In this document: positions 1,822 to 43,137 of the stretch, piece by piece
How the letters are laid out: every line of letters begins with the position of its first letter
How positions within the stretch are numbered: position 1 is the first letter of the stretch
Source of the DNA: Candidatus Hydrogenedentota bacterium
GTDB taxonomy: Bacteria; Hydrogenedentota; Hydrogenedentia; Hydrogenedentales; CAITNO01
Direction of reading: 5' to 3'
Length of the DNA stretch: 64,000 bases
Assembly: GCA_012730105.1 (NCBI GenBank)
Contig: JAAYBJ010000278.1
Span: 444 to 64,443 of the forward strand
Notes under the pieces: generated by a model
Seen by the model: the letters and a program-made list of their open reading frames with translations, nothing else
The model's database searches: none
What the model was told of the DNA's origin: nothing
Position numbers and translations under genes: made by a program

Positions 1822-2189
1822 ATCCCTGCTCCTTATCGGTTGCGGTCGTTTGCCGGGCGAAGCCTGTAAAAACTTATCATCCTGTGGATTTCCATGGTCT
1901 GCATAGGCTCGTTTCCAAGTTTTACTTGGGAACGCAATTTTTCGCGAAGTTCCACTTCGCATCCGCGGATTTTCATGGCCAGTATATCACGTATTCCCCT
2001 GAATTTGTCCGAAAGCGCTTGCCGACAGGATTTTGCAACAGCCACTTCTATTGGCGTATAACTACTCCATCTTAAAAGTGGATGTTTGCCGGGACGGAGG
2101 AGTACCCGTTCCCCGAAATGTGTGTGTTGTTAACAAGGGCCGTGCCCGGGCTGAGTTTAGCCGCGGGACATAACCGGGAGGATGTACCC

Positions 2190-3626
2190 ATGACGAGCTA
2201 CCTGGGTGTGGATGCGCAGTTTACTCTGGCTGCAAGTGTCGCGTTTTCTGGCGTGTTTGCCTTGGGAGTCATTTTCTCCATTCTGGGCAGTGTGAAACTC
2301 AAGCTTGCCGAGGCGCTCAAAATAGATGATGCCAAGGTCGGCAAGCTTATTTCCGCGCTGATGTTCAGCTGCATGATTGCCCTGCTGTTCATAGGCCCGT
2401 TGACGGATGCGCTGGGCTACAAGGTGATTGCGCTGACGGGCTTTGCTTTGGGCGCGGTTTGCGTCTGGATGCTGGCTGGCGCCCGTTCCTTCGGCGCGGC
2501 CTTGTTCGCATGCCTGCTGATGGGCATCGCCGCAATGTGCGTGAACGTGGTGGGCAATGATCTGGGCGTAAAGGTGTTGTTCGGCGGGGGTAACGCCGCG
2601 CGGGCCAGTAATTTGCTGAATGTGTTTTTCGGATTGGGCGCGCTCATCACGCCCCTTATCCTGGCCTACCTGCTCGCATTTTTGGGCTATAAGAAGACGG
2701 TGGGACTAATCGGCGTAATTCTGTTTATCCCTATCGTTTATGCGTCTTTTACCGCGTTTCCGCAGCCTGCCTCCGGATTTGAGTTCAGCCAGGTTCTGGG
2801 CTTGCTTTCGAATACCGCAGCATTAATGAGCGGTCTCACCCTGTTCTTCTACATCGCCCTGGAATCCACCATGGCGGGGTTTGTTTCCACCTACCTGAAA
2901 GAACATAAATTCGCGGACAAGACGGCGAATACCCTGCTCAGTGCGTTTTGGATCAGCCTGATGGCCGCCCGGTTGACTACCGCCATTTTCTTCTCCGGAC
3001 AAGTGGACCCGGCCATGCTCGTGCCCATCCTTGGCATATTGGTGGTTATTGGCATCGGCATTATGGTCATGGCCTCTTCTCCCGCCATGGGCGTGGTTGG
3101 CACCCTGGTAACGGGTTTCGCGCTGGGCCCGATTTTCCCGACCCTGGTAGGCGTGGCCTATTTAAAGACAGATGCCATGAACGCAGGCACGGGGGCATCC
3201 ATGTTCAGTCTGATTTTTGCCATCGGCCTGCTTGGCGGTACCCTTGTTCCGCCGCTTATCGGTTCTTATGCGGCAAAGAGCACCCTGCAGAAAGGGTTGA
3301 ATATCGCATTGGTGGTTGCCGTGGCCCTGGTCGTGGCGAGCTGTGTGTTGTGGCTGGCTATCCCGCCGGTTCAGGCGGCACCTGCGCCGGTGTCCGCCGA
3401 AGTGGAAACGCAGGATGTGGTTATTGAACCACCGGTGGTTGAAATCGAAGAAGCGATGCCGGTAGGCGCTCCGCCGGCCGTGACGGAAACGGTCTCCGAA
3501 TCGGAAGCCGCGCTGGTGCCCGAAGCACCTGCCGTGCCCGAAGCACCCGCTGCGCCTGCCGCGCCCGAAGCGCCTGCCGCGCCCGAAGCGCCCGCTGCGC
3601 CCCCTGCCGAGGGAACACAACCATAA
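2190..3626 (+). CDS. MFS transporter (FucP/glucose-galactose-like), with Pro/Ala-rich C-terminal tail
   Basis: About 12 hydrophobic helices. LGSVKLKLAEALKIDDAKVGKLISALMF resembles the FucP family. GGGAGG RBS lies upstream of ATG 2190. The C-terminus carries APEAPAAP tandem repeats. Confidence 0.7.
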   Translation: MTSYLGVDAQFTLAASVAFSGVFALGVIFSILGSVKLKLAEALKIDDAKVGKLISALMFSCMIALLFIGPLTDALGYKVIALTGFALGAVCVWMLAGARSFGAALFACLLMGIAAMCVNVVGNDLGVKVLFGGGNAARASNLLNVFFGLGALITPLILAYLLAFLGYKKTVGLIGVILFIPIVYASFTAFPQPASGFEFSQVLGLLSNTAALMSGLTLFFYIALESTMAGFVSTYLKEHKFADKTANTLLSAFWISLMAARLTTAIFFSGQVDPAMLVPILGILVVIGIGIMVMASSPAMGVVGTLVTGFALGPIFPTLVGVAYLKTDAMNAGTGASMFSLIFAIGLLGGTLVPPLIGSYAAKSTLQKGLNIALVVAVALVVASCVLWLAIPPVQAAPAPVSAEVETQDVVIEPPVVEIEEAMPVGAPPAVTETVSESEAALVPEAPAVPEAPAAPAAPEAPAAPEAPAAPPAEGTQP

Positions 3627-3720: not shown

Positions 3721-3759
3721 GGCAATCAAGTGGATGTATGCAGGAAAGATACCAGGAGT

Positions 3760-5112
3760 ATGACAGGTTCAGGAAATAAAGCGCGTATCGGCATTGTTGT
3801 GCTGGGTTGTGACAAAAATACGGCCGATGCGGAACATTTCGCCGGCAGGCTCGAAGAACGGCTTTCGAAACGGGTGACGGTCCTGGCTGCGGGGACTCCC
3901 GATGACAGCCCGCCGGATTTGGACGCTGTTATTATTTTTACCTGCGCCTTTATCCACGATGCCAAGACGGAATCCGTGGAAATGATACTGGCGTGGACCA
4001 CATTCAGGACGGAGTGGGGCGTGCCCGGCCGGGTCTATGTGGCCGGCTGTCTTTCTGAACGCTACAGGAAGGAACTGGAAGCGGAAATACCCGAGGTGGA
4101 CGCCTTTGTGGGCATTCATGAACTGGATGCGTTGCTGGCGCGTATTGGCGGGATGGTTTCCGAAGAAGCTGTTGCCTGTGATGAATTTACGCCCCGGAAG
4201 CGGCTTACCGACATGCCCTATGGGTTTCTGAAAATCGCCGATGGTTGTGACAGGAAATGTACCTTCTGTGTGATTCCAGATATTAAAGGGCCCTTTGCTT
4301 CCCTTCCGAAGGAGACATTACTGGCCGACGCCGCCGCCCTGGTGGCTTCTGGTGTCCGTGAAATTAACCTGGTAGCCCAGGACACGACCGCCTACGGAAA
4401 GGACCTGTATGCGCATTACGGGCTGGCCGAGCTGCTTGGCGATTTGTGTGCCCTTCCGGGGGACTTTTGGATCCGCTGCCTCTATTGCTATCCCAACGGC
4501 ATTACGGACGCCCTGATCGCACAGATGGTGGCCCAGTCGAAAATCGCGCCTTACTTGGACATACCGTTGCAGCATGTGTCCCCGCCTGTGCTGAAGGCCA
4601 TGGGCAGGCCGGAAAAAGCGCGAGACGTGGCGGCGCTCTTGGGCCGTCTGCGCAGGGAGATACCCGGTATGGTGTTACGAACGACCATGCTGGTGGGCTT
4701 CCCGGGGGAAACGGAAGAAGATCATCAGGCCATGCTGAAATTCATAGAGGAACAGCATTTCGAGTGGCTCGGCGCTTTTACTTACAGCGCAGAAGAGGGG
4801 AGTCCGGCGGCCCGGATGAAAGGCCACGTTCCTGGTCCGGTTGCGCGGCGGCGCCGGGAGGCCGTCATGGCACTCCAGGCGGAGATCACGGAAGCATTCA
4901 ACCAGCGCCGAGAAGGGCATGAAGATAGGGTGCTCATAGAGGAGTTCGACCGGGAGATGGGGCTGTGGAAAGGGCGAAGCCGTGCCGAAGCCCCTGAGGT
5001 GGACGGCGCGGTATACGTTGAGGCGGATCCAAGCCTGGCGTCCGGAATCTTTGTTCGGGTAAGGATGACCCGGGCCGATGGCTACGATATCCACGCGCGC
5101 GTAACGCCGTGA
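3760..5112 (+). CDS. rimO: Ribosomal protein S12 methylthiotransferase RimO (MiaB-family radical SAM + TRAM)
   Basis: MTTase N-domain (IGIVVLGCDKNTADAEHF). Radical SAM CDRKCTFC motif. C-terminal TRAM-like region. The ORF opens at GTG 3730; ATG 3760 was chosen as start. Confidence 0.8.
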   Translation: MTGSGNKARIGIVVLGCDKNTADAEHFAGRLEERLSKRVTVLAAGTPDDSPPDLDAVIIFTCAFIHDAKTESVEMILAWTTFRTEWGVPGRVYVAGCLSERYRKELEAEIPEVDAFVGIHELDALLARIGGMVSEEAVACDEFTPRKRLTDMPYGFLKIADGCDRKCTFCVIPDIKGPFASLPKETLLADAAALVASGVREINLVAQDTTAYGKDLYAHYGLAELLGDLCALPGDFWIRCLYCYPNGITDALIAQMVAQSKIAPYLDIPLQHVSPPVLKAMGRPEKARDVAALLGRLRREIPGMVLRTTMLVGFPGETEEDHQAMLKFIEEQHFEWLGAFTYSAEEGSPAARMKGHVPGPVARRRREAVMALQAEITEAFNQRREGHEDRVLIEEFDREMGLWKGRSRAEAPEVDGAVYVEADPSLASGIFVRVRMTRADGYDIHARVTP

Positions 5113-38049: not shown

Positions 38050-39135
38050 ATGATGGAACGAAAACTGCATGATGGACGTGAAGACGGCTTGACGCCGTTG
38101 AAAAGTCTTGATCTGAATTCCATTACGTCTTGCGCCGGGCTGGTGCGCGCCATGGCTTTAACGGCCTTCGGCGGGCGCCAGCTCGGTCAGGCGCTGGACG
38201 TATGCCTGGCCATGGTCCGGGACCCCGGGTGCAAGGTGGTGCTTACCCTCTCGGGCGCCATGACGGTCGCCAAGCAGGGCAGGATCATCTGCGAAATGAT
38301 CGACCGGGGTCTGGTGCACGCCGTGGTGGCCACGGGTGCGCTTATGGCCCACGGGCTTACGGAATCCATCGGCCTGACCCATTACGCGATCAACCCGGAC
38401 GCCGACGACAAGGACCTGTTCGAAAAGGGCTACAACCGTGTGTATGACACGCTGGAGATGGAGGCCAATCTCAACGAGGTCTGTGAGGTGGTCGCCGATG
38501 TACTGGCCAATTATACGCCCGGAGGCGGCGTGTGGTCGTCGGCGCGCTTCTGTCGTGCCGTGGGCGAGGAATTGGACCGCCTCGACCAGGGGCCGGGCAT
38601 CCTGCGCAGCGCGTACCGGCATGGTGTGCCCGTATTCATTCCGGCCTTCACCGACAGCGAAATGGGCCTTGATTTTTCCACTTGGGCCATGAAAGGCATG
38701 CTTCAGAAACGCGGCAAAGCCGACGGTATCACGCCGGAGGAATTGTTTACCACTGTGCCGCCCTACAATCCCTTCCTGGACCTGCAGGAATACGCCCGCT
38801 TCATAGGCCGGGCAGAATCTCTGGGCATTTTCACGGTGGGCGGCGGCGTGCCCCGGAATTGGGCGCAGCAGGTGGGCCCCTATTATGACATCACTGCCGA
38901 CCGGCTCGACATTGAACTGCCCTCCATACGCTTCAAGTATGGTGTGCGTCTCTGTCCCGAACCGGTGAACTGGGGCGGTCTCTCCGGCTGCACCTATTCC
39001 GAGGGTGTGAGCTGGGGCAAGTTTGTCCACCCGGATGACGGCGGCCGCTATGCCGAGGTGCTCACTGACGCGACCATCGTCTGGCCCATATTGATGAAAG
39101 CGGTGTTTGAGGAACTGGACGCCAAAGGCAAGTAA
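38050..39135 (+). CDS. Deoxyhypusine synthase family protein (DHS-like / homospermidine-synthase-like)
   Basis: KVVLTLSGAMTVAKQGRIICEMIDRGLVHAVVATGALMAHGL and FTVGGGVPRNW resemble the DHS family. Adjacent to speH. Confidence 0.65.
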   Translation: MMERKLHDGREDGLTPLKSLDLNSITSCAGLVRAMALTAFGGRQLGQALDVCLAMVRDPGCKVVLTLSGAMTVAKQGRIICEMIDRGLVHAVVATGALMAHGLTESIGLTHYAINPDADDKDLFEKGYNRVYDTLEMEANLNEVCEVVADVLANYTPGGGVWSSARFCRAVGEELDRLDQGPGILRSAYRHGVPVFIPAFTDSEMGLDFSTWAMKGMLQKRGKADGITPEELFTTVPPYNPFLDLQEYARFIGRAESLGIFTVGGGVPRNWAQQVGPYYDITADRLDIELPSIRFKYGVRLCPEPVNWGGLSGCTYSEGVSWGKFVHPDDGGRYAEVLTDATIVWPILMKAVFEELDAKGK

Positions 39136-39203
39136 ACCGGGTCAAGACAGGCCTGTTTGTGTTCTGAATACTTCGGTTCCCGCACGAGTGATTTGCCCGA
39201 GCC

Positions 39204-39251
39204 TGTTGGACTTTGTCGGACTCTGTCAGACAGTGTCAGACCCTGTCGGAC
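39204..39251 (+). repeat. Five exactly 10-bp-phased copies of TGT(C/T)(G/A)GAC upstream of DUF72 gene
   Basis: tgttggac 39204, tgtcggac 39214, tgtcagac 39224, tgtcagac 39234, tgtcggac 39244. The array ends 27 bp before the start codon at 39278. Confidence 0.7.
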
Positions 39252-39277
39252 GGCGCTGAACACCAACCCAGTATCGC

Positions 39278-40159
39278 ATGAATTCCACACACGAAAACGG
39301 CGGCACATCCGCCAATATCTTCATCGGCCCGGCGGGCTGGTCCTACGCGGACTGGAAGGGCATCGTCTATCCGGGAAACTGCCTTACTCCCCTTGCCATG
39401 CTTTGCCGCTGGGTGGACCTGGTCGAAATCAATGTTACCTTTTATCGTCCTTTGGGCGTGCGCTTTGCCGCTTCGTGGCTGGCGCAGTCCGAGTCGAATC
39501 CGCGTTTCCGCTTTACGGCCAAAGCACCCTCCGTATTGACCCACGAACGGGGCGAAAAGCCCGATGTCACCTGTGCTTCGGCGTTTATTGAAAGCCTCAA
39601 GCCCCTGAACGCCCGGGGTAAACTCGGCGCCGTGCTGCTGCAGTTTCCCTGGAGTTATAAGCGTACTCCCGCTGCCAGGTCCTATCTCGCCCGGCTTGCC
39701 GATACGCTCCAAGAAGTGCCCCTTTGTGTGGAAATGCGACATGATTCCTGGGCGGTGCCTGATTTTTTCGAGGGGCTGCGGGAACGAGGCATCGCTTTCT
39801 GCAACATCGACCAGCCCGGGTTGAACGCTTGTATCGGGCCCTTGGCGGAAGTGACCGCCCCCTTCGCCTATGTGCGACTGCACGGACGCAACGCGAACGC
39901 GTGGTTCAAACAGGACGCCGGGCGCGATGACCGTTACAATTACCTGTACAGCGGGGAGGAACTCGCCCCCTGGGTGAGCAGAATCATGGACATGAAGAAA
40001 CAGGTGAACGACTTGTATATCGTTACCAATAATCACTATCAGGGCAAGGCAGTGGTCAATGCGCTCGAACTGCAGGCCTCCTTCGGCACTCTGCGCCCGT
40101 CCCTGCCCGAAACCCTGCTCTACGCCTATCCCCGCCTGAAAGAAATCATGGCAAGATAA
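39278..40159 (+). CDS. DUF72 (YecE/UPF0759) family protein
   Basis: IGPAGWSYADWKGIVYP N-terminal DUF72 hallmark. Confidence 0.75.
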   Translation: MNSTHENGGTSANIFIGPAGWSYADWKGIVYPGNCLTPLAMLCRWVDLVEINVTFYRPLGVRFAASWLAQSESNPRFRFTAKAPSVLTHERGEKPDVTCASAFIESLKPLNARGKLGAVLLQFPWSYKRTPAARSYLARLADTLQEVPLCVEMRHDSWAVPDFFEGLRERGIAFCNIDQPGLNACIGPLAEVTAPFAYVRLHGRNANAWFKQDAGRDDRYNYLYSGEELAPWVSRIMDMKKQVNDLYIVTNNHYQGKAVVNALELQASFGTLRPSLPETLLYAYPRLKEIMAR

Positions 40160-40179
40160 TAATATCATTTGCCGATGCT

Positions 40180-40227
40180 GTCTGAAGGCGTCCGATTCTG
40201 TCCGACATCGTCCGACTTCATCCGACA
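40180..40227 (+). repeat. Five 10-bp-phased copies of GTC(C/T)GA(C/T)N (reverse complement of upstream array motif) downstream of DUF72 gene
   Basis: gtctgaag 40180, gtccgatt 40190, gtccgaca 40200, gtccgact 40210, atccgaca 40220. Starts 21 bp after the DUF72 stop and sits upstream of the YdiJ-like gene. Confidence 0.7.
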
Positions 40228-40251
40228 GGGCCACCACGCTTTGAATGCTTT

Positions 40252-43137
40252 GTGCCCGTCATGGCAAAATGGGGGTCTACCAAAGAGCAACCGTTCCCGG
40301 AAACCATTATGACCACCTTGAAAGAGATTCAAAAGAACTGCACATGCCCCGTTTTTCTGGATGATCTGACGCGGCAGTTGTATGCCACGGATGCCTCCAT
40401 TTACCAGGTCTCCCCCCTGGGAGCCGCTTTCCCCCGTTCCCTGGAGGAAACCAGCGAAATAATGGCCGCCTGCGCGGCCTCAGATATCCCCATGATCCCG
40501 CGCGGGGCGGGCAGCGGCCTGGCGGGCGGTGCCCTGGGCGAGGCGCTGATACTCGATTTTTCGCGATATAATCGTGTTATTACTGATTTTAATCGTGAAG
40601 CGCGCACGGTGCGGGTGGGGGCGGGGGTGGTCCTGGACCAACTGAACGAGTTCCTCAAGCCCCATGGACTGACCTTCGGCCCGGATGTAGCGACGAGTTC
40701 TCGCGCGACTGTGGGCGGGATGATCGCGAACAACAGCTCCGGCGCGCGGGCGCCTTTCTATGGGACAACCCTGGAACACGTGGCCGGCCTCGAGATCGTC
40801 ATGAGTGGCGGAGAGACGGCGTTGCTCAGCGCCGAATCCCGGGATATGCGTGACCGCCTCGCCGAGGCGCACGCCGGTGTGCTCGCCCAGCGCCAGGAAA
40901 TTGAAAAACGTTTCCACAACGGCATTCCCAAGCGTTGGCCGGGATACGGCCTGGACCGGTATCTGCGGAGCCTGGATGCGGGAGAGCCTGACCCGGCCAA
41001 ACTTGTCGGCGGTAGCGAGGGCACGCTTTGCACGGTGTACGCGGCAACGCTGCGGGTGGTGCCGTTGCCCCCGTCCAGCGGACTGGTGTTGCTTTTCTTC
41101 GATTCCGTGAAGGAGGCGACCCGGGCCTCGGCTGCGCTGCTTGATCTGGAACCTGTGGGTATTGAAATCATTGACGATATGCTCTTCAACCAGACGAAAG
41201 GCCAGCAGGCCTTCGCCGGGGCCAGAGCGCTGCTGGAACTGGATGACAAACCGTGCCGCGCCATCCTGCTCGTGGAATTTTACGAACATCAGGAAGAAAA
41301 AGTGGCGGCCCTGCTCGGGCGCGGCCTAGGCATGCGGCATCATGTCTGCGCCACGGCGCAGGAGAAGGCCATGGTGTGGAACCTGCGCAAATCGGGCCTG
41401 TCCCTGCTGACCGGCTGTCCTGGCCCCGCCAAACCGACCGCAGGCATAGAAGACGTGGCGGTGCCGCCGCACCATTTGCCCGAATATATCGATGCGCTCA
41501 CGGGCATTCTCGGACGCCTCGGCCTGCAGGCTTCTTTTTACGGGCATGCCGCTTCGGGCCTCCTCCATGTGCGGCCGGTGGTCGACCTGCACACTGCCCG
41601 GGATCTCCAGCGATACCGCCAATTATCTGATGAAGTGGCGGCGCTCGCGAAACAGTTCAGGGCTTCGCTGACCGCTGAACACGGGGTGGGCATCGAGCAT
41701 ACCGAGTACATGCTGGACCAGGTGGGGCCGGAACTGCTCAACACGATGCGCCTTGTGAAGAATGCCTTCGATCCCAAAGATCTTATGAATCCGGGGAAGA
41801 TATTTGACAACGGCCGCTGGCGTTTCGATACAGATCTGCGCCAAGGTGTGGGCGCCGCCATTCCCATACCCTTTGAGCCTGTGCTGCTTTTCGATGCCAA
41901 GGACCACTCCTTTGTCGGTAACCTGGAACAATGCAACGGCTGTGGGGGTTGTCGCAAAGACGCGCCCACCATGTGCCCCACCTTCCAGGCCACGGGTGAG
42001 GAATACATGTCCACGCGGGGGAGAGCGAACATTATCCGCGCTGTGCTGGAAGGGCGGCTGGATGGCGGGGAGGAGCCCTTACTGTCGGAATCGCTCGAAA
42101 TCGCCCTGAGCAACTGCCTGAGCTGCAAGGCCTGTGCCGCCGAATGCCCGTCGAACGTTAATCTGCCGCTGCTCAAAGCGGAACTCGTGCATGCGCGCCA
42201 CCGGAAATACGGGATTCCTCTGTACGCGCGTGTTCTTAGCCGGACGGACCTGCTGGGGGCGCTGGGAAGCGCTCTGCCGGGCATCACCAATGCACTCCTG
42301 CAAAATTCCGCGTTCAGGATGCTGCTGAAGCATCTGGTCCGCGTGGCGCCCGAGCGCCCGTTGCCCACCTATGTCGGCGAACGTTTTGACACATGGTTCA
42401 GGGGACGGGACAACGGCCGGCAGCCGAAGCGGGGCACCGTGCTGTTGTGGGACGATTGCTTTGTGCGGCACAACGAGCCGCAGATTGGCAAGGCGGCTGT
42501 TGCCGTGCTCGAGGCTGCCGGGTACGGCGTCCGGCTTCTCGAGGGGCATGCCTGCTGTGGCAGGCCTGCCTTCAGCATGGGGCGACTGGACCTCGCCCGG
42601 CGTTTCGGCAGACGAAACCTGGACCTTCTGAAACAAACGGAAGGCCCTGTCCTTTTCCTGGAACCCTCCTGTTATGCCATGTTCCGTGAGGACTACAGGG
42701 AACTCGGTCTGGACGGTGCTGCGGAGGCTGCGGAACGGGCGGTTCTTTTTGAGCACTTTATTGAATTTCTACTGCGGAAAGAGCCGGAGGCGTTGAAGTT
42801 GCGCACTTTGGAATCCGGCCTGGCCGTTCATGTCCACTGCCATGCCAAGGCGCTTACCGATACGGGGCTTGCACTGCAGCTGGGACGCCGCCTTGCCGGG
42901 AGCAAGGCGACTCTCCTCGACAGCGGCTGTTGCGGTATGGCCGGCGCGTTCGGCGCCCTGAAAGGCAAGTATGCGTTGAGCATGGAAGTGGGGGAAGCGC
43001 TGGTGAAATTGATCAACGCCCTTCCGGAAGATACCCGCCTGATTGCTTCGGGCACCAGCTGTCGCCAGCAGATCAATCATTGCACTGTACGACCAGTCAC
43101 CCATTTTGCCGAAATACTGGCCGAAGCGCTGGAGTGA
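40252..43137 (+). CDS. FAD-linked oxidase fused to 4Fe-4S dicluster and CCG domains (YdiJ-like D-2-hydroxyacid/glycolate oxidase family)
   Basis: FAD-binding PCMH N-terminus (PRGAGSGLAGGALG). CxxCxxCxxxCP (CNGCGGCRKDAPTMCP; LSCKACAAECP). Two C-terminal CCG-like Cys clusters. Alternative start is ATG 40309 (MTTLKEIQK). Confidence 0.8.
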   Translation: MPVMAKWGSTKEQPFPETIMTTLKEIQKNCTCPVFLDDLTRQLYATDASIYQVSPLGAAFPRSLEETSEIMAACAASDIPMIPRGAGSGLAGGALGEALILDFSRYNRVITDFNREARTVRVGAGVVLDQLNEFLKPHGLTFGPDVATSSRATVGGMIANNSSGARAPFYGTTLEHVAGLEIVMSGGETALLSAESRDMRDRLAEAHAGVLAQRQEIEKRFHNGIPKRWPGYGLDRYLRSLDAGEPDPAKLVGGSEGTLCTVYAATLRVVPLPPSSGLVLLFFDSVKEATRASAALLDLEPVGIEIIDDMLFNQTKGQQAFAGARALLELDDKPCRAILLVEFYEHQEEKVAALLGRGLGMRHHVCATAQEKAMVWNLRKSGLSLLTGCPGPAKPTAGIEDVAVPPHHLPEYIDALTGILGRLGLQASFYGHAASGLLHVRPVVDLHTARDLQRYRQLSDEVAALAKQFRASLTAEHGVGIEHTEYMLDQVGPELLNTMRLVKNAFDPKDLMNPGKIFDNGRWRFDTDLRQGVGAAIPIPFEPVLLFDAKDHSFVGNLEQCNGCGGCRKDAPTMCPTFQATGEEYMSTRGRANIIRAVLEGRLDGGEEPLLSESLEIALSNCLSCKACAAECPSNVNLPLLKAELVHARHRKYGIPLYARVLSRTDLLGALGSALPGITNALLQNSAFRMLLKHLVRVAPERPLPTYVGERFDTWFRGRDNGRQPKRGTVLLWDDCFVRHNEPQIGKAAVAVLEAAGYGVRLLEGHACCGRPAFSMGRLDLARRFGRRNLDLLKQTEGPVLFLEPSCYAMFREDYRELGLDGAAEAAERAVLFEHFIEFLLRKEPEALKLRTLESGLAVHVHCHAKALTDTGLALQLGRRLAGSKATLLDSGCCGMAGAFGALKGKYALSMEVGEALVKLINALPEDTRLIASGTSCRQQINHCTVRPVTHFAEILAEALE

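Follow-up and report, generated by a model that had tools for sequence, protein, structure and literature searches.

Two helically phased GTC-N-GAC arrays flank a DUF72 gene in a Hydrogenedentota bacterium and may belong to a dispersed family of protein-docking repeats

Among the described systems that come closest to the element considered here, a pair of five-unit GTC-N-GAC arrays bracketing a DUF72 gene in a 64,000-nucleotide stretch of Candidatus Hydrogenedentota DNA (the window), is the operator of MraZ, a protein whose target boxes, GTG(G/T), are separated by 6-nt spacers (PMC12957436). The MraZ operator consists of three to four direct repeats upstream of the dcw cluster and occurs at a single locus per genome, beside mraZ. 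It shares with the window arrays a short core, a 10-bp period and free spacers, and its cooperative oligomeric binding along one helix face is the kind of loading considered below (PMC12957436). The window arrays differ in having the core GTC-R-GAC and not GTG(G/T), in having five units, in belonging to a pattern found at many loci and in lacking an mraZ/dcw context. In the parC site of plasmid R1, ParR recognizes two sets of five 11-bp iterons with approximately one dimer per iteron, each set being loaded independently of the other (PMC2241845). The window likewise contains two separate sets of five, but the parC iterons are direct repeats with an 11-bp period, the sets flank a promoter with 39 bp between them, and parR/parM are adjacent on the plasmid, whereas the window sets have a 10-bp period, are inverted, lie ~930 bp apart and are found among chromosomal housekeeping neighbors with no par genes. 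A third point of comparison is the motif itself, as GTCnGAC also forms the center of the operators recognized by FadR and LldR (PMC9329746, PMC10272880). These operators of GntR-family regulators, aaCTGGTCnGACCAGtt, have an inner core identical to that of the window but are isolated 17-bp palindromes with TGG/CCA flanks. The window units, in contrast, abut every 10 bp and are flanked by T or G and not GG, and no GntR domain was found among the window proteins using Pfam. FadR-subfamily regulators often control genes for lactate/glycolate/2-hydroxyglutarate-type FAD/FeS oxidases, and the gene that follows the downstream array is of this type. Because flanks, period, orientation and neighboring genes differ, the window arrays cannot be assigned to the MraZ, ParR or FadR/LldR systems.

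Two other classes of element are relevant. Repetitive extragenic palindromic (REP) units are imperfect palindromes of 20–40 nt that can each fold into a hairpin and are associated with RAYT transposases. Like the window arrays, REP sequences and bacterial interspersed mosaic elements comprise short palindromic units in intergenic arrays, often positioned just after stop codons, and some copies are terminators; the window unit differs in its 7-bp core plus 3-nt spacer and its strict 10-bp phase, and uniform arrays of this kind fold weakly. The intervening sequences of 23S rRNA that carry open reading frames (ORFs) of family PF05635 also place a small gene between mutually pairing repeats, but DUF72 is not PF05635, the window locus is outside rRNA, and its repeats are phased decamers with noncomplementary spacers. 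A literature search on the motif, on decamer arrays and on DUF72 function yielded general background and, as the sole specific match, the FadR/LldR core. To our knowledge, the Hydrogenedentota are uncultured and nothing is known of their cis-regulatory or repeat elements.

Direct reading of the upstream array (Table 1) gave TGTTGGAC at 39204, TGTCGGAC at 39214, TGTCAGAC at 39224 and again at 39234, and TGTCGGAC at 39244. The plus-strand units of the downstream array are GTCTGAA (40180), GTCCGAT (40190), GTCCGAC (40200 and 40210) and ATCCGAC (40220). The period is exactly 10 bp in both arrays, and Tandem Repeats Finder detects both with period 10 and also 20. An initial annotation, made from the letters alone, had described five units on each side. 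Its upstream units and their exact spacing were confirmed by both approaches; downstream, the positions and period were borne out, but the degenerate motif it used hid two one-base mismatches. Three of the five downstream units are perfect complements of the core, unit 1 has A at its last base and unit 5 has A at its first. The distances it gave are right by subtraction, with 27 bp between the end of the upstream array (39251) and the DUF72 ATG (39278) and 21 bp between the end of the DUF72 stop codon (40159) and the start of the downstream array (40180), which in turn ends 33 nt before the ATG of the next gene, encoding a YdiJ-like oxidase (40261). Its "inverted orientation" holds in the sense that the central base belongs to opposite classes (purine in 5/5 upstream units and pyrimidine in 5/5 downstream units), but the core GTC-N-GAC is itself palindromic and orientation is set only by this central base and a weak 5' T.

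The arrangement, and not the word, is unusual. The single 8-mer, with one mismatch allowed, has 59 matches in the window against 52 ± 7 expected and is not enriched. When three phased units were scored with a position weight matrix (PWM), the upstream and downstream arrays reached 37.4 and 34.4, respectively, while the next-best site in the window scored 10.0 and the maximum over 30 shuffles was 18.3. Irregular spacing and random-phase abundance, the two grounds on which the initial annotation would have been withdrawn, were not observed in the window. Apart from the variants described next, the arrays were called identical across 10 independent assemblies of the same species, so they are not an assembly artifact. 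In one conspecific contig (L008, locus 3755–3795), the downstream array lacks exactly one 10-bp unit (GTCCGACATC), indicating that replication slippage acts on this array; in L008 and in L007 (3756–3806), the downstream unit GTCCGAT is changed to GTCCGAC, a shift toward the consensus. The arrays are therefore real and conserved, and they represent an unusual variant of known phased-repeat elements.

Comparison with related species (L-numbers are labels of the compared contigs and loci) gave the evidence on which the interpretation of the arrays depends most. In a sister species (L011), whose flanking genes are 91–98% identical to those of the window at the DNA level, both arrays are kept; the upstream one differs from its window counterpart by one substitution and the downstream one by three. 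A third species (L136) was located via its DUF72 protein and not via the motif. Its deoxyhypusine-synthase-like protein, encoded by the gene upstream of DUF72, is 94% identical to that of the window, and the same upstream spacer contains a five-unit array while the remaining spacer is unalignable. When the window and L136 arrays were compared unit by unit, 27/30 core positions were identical and only 3/14 spacer positions (Fisher p = 1.3e-5), and the central base in L136 is always a purine. The downstream array is absent from L136, where the downstream gene also differs. Arrays at this locus are absent from the more distant relatives L135, L139, L141, L013 and L015. The linkage between the deoxyhypusine-synthase-like and DUF72 genes is nevertheless found in L011, L015, L135, L136, L139 and L141, and L139 retains the complete gene order through the oxidase gene, with a DUF72-oxidase spacer of 55 nt and no arrays. 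Thus, in the comparison with related genomes that the initial annotation had proposed, the arrays vary in presence while the DUF72 gene order stays, and because array-less relatives hold the same order, the order is older than the arrays. As judged from these alignments, the arrays are additions to the spacers of a gene run that is probably an operon. In ~120 kb of nonredundant Hydrogenedentes sequence that had not been selected by the motif, no array was found other than those at DUF72. The upstream spacer of array-less relatives contains instead a conserved inverted-repeat element of ~90 nt (gggactgactgcgaaatagcc ... ggctatttcgtagtctgtccc; L013 70–157, L135 3895–4000, L139 1400–1495 and L141 3700–3822), in some cases ahead of a T-run, that likely functions as a terminator or leader.

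Neither the phased PWM nor the array scan detected further phased arrays in the 64-kb window, which is also the extent of the source genome available for copy counting. The search for more arrays advocated in the initial annotation was productive elsewhere, as related Hydrogenedentota contigs carry arrays, by unrelated genes. When one genome per species was scanned for GTCNGAC in three phased units, at least 118 loci were returned, and a metagenome scan with a T-anchored pattern returned at least 119. Among the matches listed were five loci from three Hydrogenedentota metagenome-assembled genomes (MAGs; L024, L033, L060, L100 and L110) and four contigs from the same digester series with window-like tetranucleotide composition (r = 0.93–0.95; L203, L146, L173 and L253). 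The 13 arrays of Hydrogenedentota type among the listed matches have 3–7 units, heterogeneous spacers and, in 10/13 cases, a uniform central-base class. After the arrays were oriented, the central base was a purine in 53 of 56 units, and the base at position -1 was T in 27 and G in 16. The listed arrays lie in co-directional, convergent and, once, divergent spacers, and four (those before DUF72 and the oxidase gene, L060 and L100) end 27–33 nt before a start codon. Folding of single arrays gave z-scores against dinucleotide shuffles of -2.7 for the upstream window array, -0.19 for the downstream window array and +0.17 for that of L136. With such weak folds, local structure is not the conserved trait of uniform arrays. 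A local hairpin or intrinsic terminator formed by the window arrays was rejected on these z-scores and on the lack of a T-run in either array.

The interpretation we favor, tentatively and with somewhat less than even confidence, is that the arrays belong to a dispersed, Hydrogenedentota-wide family of one-face docking arrays for a DNA-binding protein. The family would comprise short intergenic arrays of 3–7 near-palindromic GTC-R-GAC heptamers, one helical turn apart and with free 3-nt spacers, in which selection would maintain the heptamer core and its phase. Each unit would be a putative contact site for a DNA-binding protein, either a dimer or the subunit of an oligomer, which may load cooperatively along one face of the helix and contact successive major grooves. 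Protein contact is suggested by the conservation of the core while the spacers drift, by the one-turn phase and by the absence of intrinsic RNA structure. In the window, each of the two spacers of the older gene run could have gained one array by insertion or expansion. Coated with protein, the arrays could then modulate or insulate transcription of DUF72 and the oxidase gene, whose start codons lie 27 and 33 nt, respectively, beyond the array ends. Since the neighbors of the arrays are unrelated and some settings are convergent, a dispersed repeat family fits better than operators of one dedicated DUF72/YdiJ regulator. Of the three options in the initial annotation, phased binding sites on one DNA face are the best supported (by the contrast between core and spacers, the 10-bp phase and the lack of a consistent RNA fold), but the dedicated regulator implied there is not favored. 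The value of the arrays as a handle lies in their sharply defined core, exact helical phase, purifying selection on the core and phylum-wide dispersal, and they could lead to a new DNA-binding (or RNA-processing) system.

Several observations weigh against protein docking. No candidate regulator gene was identified by Pfam among the ~30 proteins of the 64-kb window, and no function is common to the neighbors of the five Hydrogenedentota MAG loci, which include pectate-lyase-like, GH99-like, kinase-like, DUF1559 and sulfatase genes. Three of the 13 listed arrays lie between convergent genes (L110, L253 and L178), which would be odd for operators, and array orientation relative to neighboring genes is not constant. 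Although the 56 units pooled from the 13 listed arrays count in favor of docking, with 1.65–2.0 bits per core position and ~0 bits in the spacers, core conservation in arrays found by pattern is partly built in by the search, and only the comparison between the window and L136 is unbiased in this respect. The missing unit in L008 is a unit-number polymorphism within a species and points to replication slippage at the locus. Control scans of viral contigs for the same architecture returned 14 loci for GTCNGAC, 45 for GACNGTC and 12 for CTGNCAG, so decamer arrays can arise from generic tandem-repeat dynamics. These controls also led to rejection of GTCNGAC as a universally special motif.

A serious rival, which we consider unlikely but closest in weight to protein docking, is that the arrays are REP-like or selfish dispersed tandem repeats with no locus-specific role. 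They would spread and be resized by slippage or by a mobilizing enzyme that reads the palindromic core, the flanking of DUF72 would be an accident of neighboring insertions, and any effect would be generic, for example as a 3'-end or terminator element when both unit orientations are combined. This would explain why arrays adjoin unrelated genes in co-directional, convergent and divergent spacers, why 12/13 listed arrays are 3' of at least one gene and why unit number varies within a species. It is also consistent with the equal abundance of arrays with other heptamer cores in viral contigs and with the dozens of near-perfect copies in some genomes, such as Verrucomicrobia WAS_Bin_30. An example of the terminator function is provided by L110 (1241–1292), from another Hydrogenedentota MAG, where the same units, two per orientation and with spacers that complement each other, fold into a perfect hairpin (-35 kcal/mol, z = -6.95) followed by a T8 tail; lying between convergent genes, this array is a perfect intrinsic terminator. 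Uniform-orientation arrays, however, make poor hairpins. A five-unit array in the same spacer of three species, with cores kept and spacers randomized, argues for constraint on the sites, and the only arrays in the ~120 kb of Hydrogenedentes sequence not selected by motif are those at DUF72. Two arrays around one gene would be a coincidence of ~2–4%, as estimated by us for the ~55 spacers of the window. If the arrays are merely slippage-prone repeats, the finding is an ordinary one.

Many of the cross-phylum matches are perfect microsatellite-like runs, as in WAS_Bin_30, and the matches from the genome and metagenome scans mostly reflect the commonness of decamer tandem repeats. An expectation based on independent bases is the wrong null for decamer arrays of palindromic heptamers; because such arrays of any palindrome far exceed that prediction, cross-phylum matches alone are no evidence of shared function. 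All-against-all BLAST of the ORFs flanking 118 and then ~240 listed loci gave no family in common with the window. A second tandem repeat, of heptamers, directly follows long near-perfect GTCNGAC arrays in Verrucomicrobia WAS_Bin_30 and Lentisphaeria UBA1407 (CATTCAG, CATTCAT or AATTCAG; L020 268–300, L038 5227–5260, L051 331–365, L056 7102–7140, L070 3655–3690 and L099 2653–2690), which suggests a larger composite repeat element in these genomes. Outside Hydrogenedentota, TGTCNGACA arrays with heterogeneous spacers were also seen at orthologous positions in pairs of related species. In an Alicyclobacillus pair (L123 1350–1423 and L126 920–980), they lie just 3' of a homologous gene of ~123 aa, and an Acidobacteria pair has orthologous arrays at L019 1751–1790 and L025 4330–4368.

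An action of the arrays at the level of RNA, also raised in the initial annotation as structured RNA, is a weak, minority rival and appears improbable. It would require a polycistronic mRNA spanning the upstream gene, DUF72 and the oxidase gene, in which the two arrays form an imperfect duplex of ~50 nt that loops out the DUF72 cistron, creating either a processing site, comparable to those at which RNase III excises intervening sequences from 23S rRNA, or a stabilizing panhandle. Such a duplex is thermodynamically possible: its predicted energy is -70.6 kcal/mol compared to -35.7 ± 4.9 for shuffles, the minimum-free-energy fold of the 1.1-kb RNA contains 43 inter-array base pairs, and the purine centers upstream and pyrimidine centers downstream make the cores exact complements. 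The 55-nt DUF72-oxidase spacer in L139 suggests cotranscription, and PF05635 genes (23S-IVS/Avd-like) with flanking arrays in Bacteroidales have inter-array duplexes of -54 to -87 kcal/mol. In the window, however, the spacers of one array pair with those of the other at only ~5/12 positions including G-U, which is the chance level. Since they are noncomplementary, the duplex would be a series of 7-bp helices split by 3 × 3 loops, a poor RNase III substrate. Compensatory change was sought in the sister species, where substitutions are few and mixed in direction: of the three downstream, one improves pairing and two break pairs, and the single upstream substitution affects a site that forms no pair in either species, so no compensation was seen. 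The upstream array of L136 has no partner array, related arrays are mostly solitary, and some gene-flanking array pairs in Bacteroidales are in direct orientation. Rfam searches of the region were negative at both the gathering threshold and E <= 5, and there is no consistent local fold.

A more speculative set of possibilities involves the genes that such arrays flank. ORF clustering beside the listed array loci yielded one recurrent family of ~190–250 aa, which belongs to the Avd/23S-rRNA-IVS family PF05635 and is identified by NCBIfam as TIGR04258, the four-helix-bundle suffix domain (82 bits; cutoff 40). The ORFs carried by 23S rRNA intervening sequences encode PF05635 proteins, and these are related to Avd, a protein of diversity-generating retroelements. 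Among the matches listed, a gene of this family lies between two GTCNGAC arrays in eight loci. The period of the arrays around TIGR04258/PF05635 genes is 9–10 bp, and the hosts are Bacteroidales and other bacteria. Flanked genes were noted at L073 1961–2884, L249 11784–12553, L156 708–1462, L163 1149–1956, L246 74–1165, L035 397–1131 and L339 2348–3140. The last of these, from Muribaculaceae, was chosen by protein similarity alone and has GTCNGAC arrays with a 9-bp period on both sides. Other members are associated with other cores, of AGTAYTC and CCTAGG type (Porphyromonas gulae L334 2440–2485 and Prevotella nigrescens L342 2140–2215), and one member in a tight operon has no arrays. By analogy with REP/RAYT systems, oligomers of the four-helix-bundle protein would bind or mobilize the flanking arrays, and the DUF72 arrays of Hydrogenedentes would be solo or captured copies. 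A hidden Markov model built from the Bacteroidales genes found no four-helix-bundle gene near Hydrogenedentota arrays or in the window, so the link to the window is only architectural. That GTC-N-GAC arrays with a 9–10-bp period might form a cross-phylum cis class, flanking thousands of Bacteroidales four-helix-bundle genes as binding or mobilization sites, is an analogy to which we assign little probability. We regard as a comparably long shot that the window arrays are solo or captured copies of such a system, or that DUF72, an endonuclease-IV-like TIM barrel, acts on its own arrays. No description of arrays flanking four-helix-bundle genes was found in the literature searched. The Bacteroidales arrays bracket very abundant, function-less suffix-domain genes of the gut and rumen; if the association holds, it could be the first clue to the role of this family.

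In the remaining option in the initial annotation, DUF72 is carried by a small mobile cassette (MITE-like, that is, resembling a miniature inverted-repeat transposable element) whose terminal inverted repeats are the two arrays. This reading, which we extend to an invertible segment, is refuted by array-less synteny, lack of a target-site duplication, uniform orientation and intragenic breakpoints, and we give it almost no weight despite the close bracketing of one gene by two inverted arrays, the unusual divergence of the DUF72 interior between sister species and the resemblance of the Bacteroidales four-helix-bundle genes to inserted cassettes bracketed by such arrays. The three-gene linkage exists without arrays in L139, as does that of the first two genes in L015, L135 and L141; L136 holds a single array; the outer flanks (...cccgagcc followed by TGTTGGAC, and ATCCGACA followed by gggccacc) show no direct repeat; 12/12 contigs of the two array-bearing species share one orientation; and no recombinase or transposase was found nearby among the window proteins (Pfam). 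The tract of low identity is intragenic and does not extend from array to array. In sliding comparisons with L011 it has 59–77% identity, and identity is 90–98% on either side, arrays included. Within this segment, any two of eight lineages are ~70–78% identical, which suggests from the alignments that the DUF72 alleles are old and have been exchanged by homologous recombination, or that the gene is evolving unusually fast. Any such allele exchange is independent of the arrays.

The features of the locus are collected in Table 1. The DUF72 protein is related to TM1631 (PDB 1vpq, E = 3.5e-41). The oxidase matches NCBIfam NF049975 below the cutoff of that family, and the start codon given is backed by an N-terminal MAKW sequence common to the distant relative L139. 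Further upstream, an AP_endonuc_2 TIM-barrel gene and an AdoMet decarboxylase gene precede the deoxyhypusine-synthase-like gene. A terminator-like hairpin lies just 3' of the latter gene, ~40 nt before the upstream array. Domains of transcription factors, recombinases or transposases were absent from the ~30 window proteins searched with Pfam. Homologues are named Candidatus Hydrogenedentes, and the contigs derive from anaerobic-digester metagenomes.

Table 1. Positions of the two arrays, the genes around them and associated features in the window
Feature	Coordinates	Strand	Basis or remarks
Deoxyhypusine-synthase-like gene	38050..39135	+	Pfam PF01916
Weak terminator-like hairpin with T-rich tail	39138..39165	+	Consensus scan; not counted as functional evidence
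Upstream array	39204..39251	+	5x TGT(C/T)-R-GAC; spacer between deoxyhypusine-synthase-like gene and DUF72
DUF72 (YecE/TM1631-like) gene, 293 aa	39278..40159	+	Pfam PF01904, E = 3.6e-54
Divergent DUF72 interior	39316..39915	+	Sliding identity, window vs L011 10039-10638
Downstream array	40180..40227	-	Minus-strand units TGTCGGAT, AGTCGGAC, TGTCGGAC, AATCGGAC, CTTCAGAC
YdiJ-like FAD/FeS (GlcD plus GlpC/CCG) oxidase gene, 958 aa	40261..43137	+	Pfam

An antisense ORF of 333 aa that runs on the minus strand from array to array (39236–40237) was considered and set aside, as it is probably a GC-rich shadow frame of the well-supported DUF72 gene. In the sister species, a 1-nt indel at L011 10984–11035 (corresponding to window 40261–40312) brings a stop codon into frame behind the conserved N-terminal MAKWG of the oxidase, which is therefore called from the second ATG in that species; this reflects either a sequencing error or a real start shift. 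Elsewhere in the window, a tandem repeat at 3518–3607, with a period of 9/18/27 bp and GCCCGCAGC-like units, is located at the 3' end of an MFS transporter ORF (2082–3626), where it encodes Pro/Ala/Glu-rich repeats.

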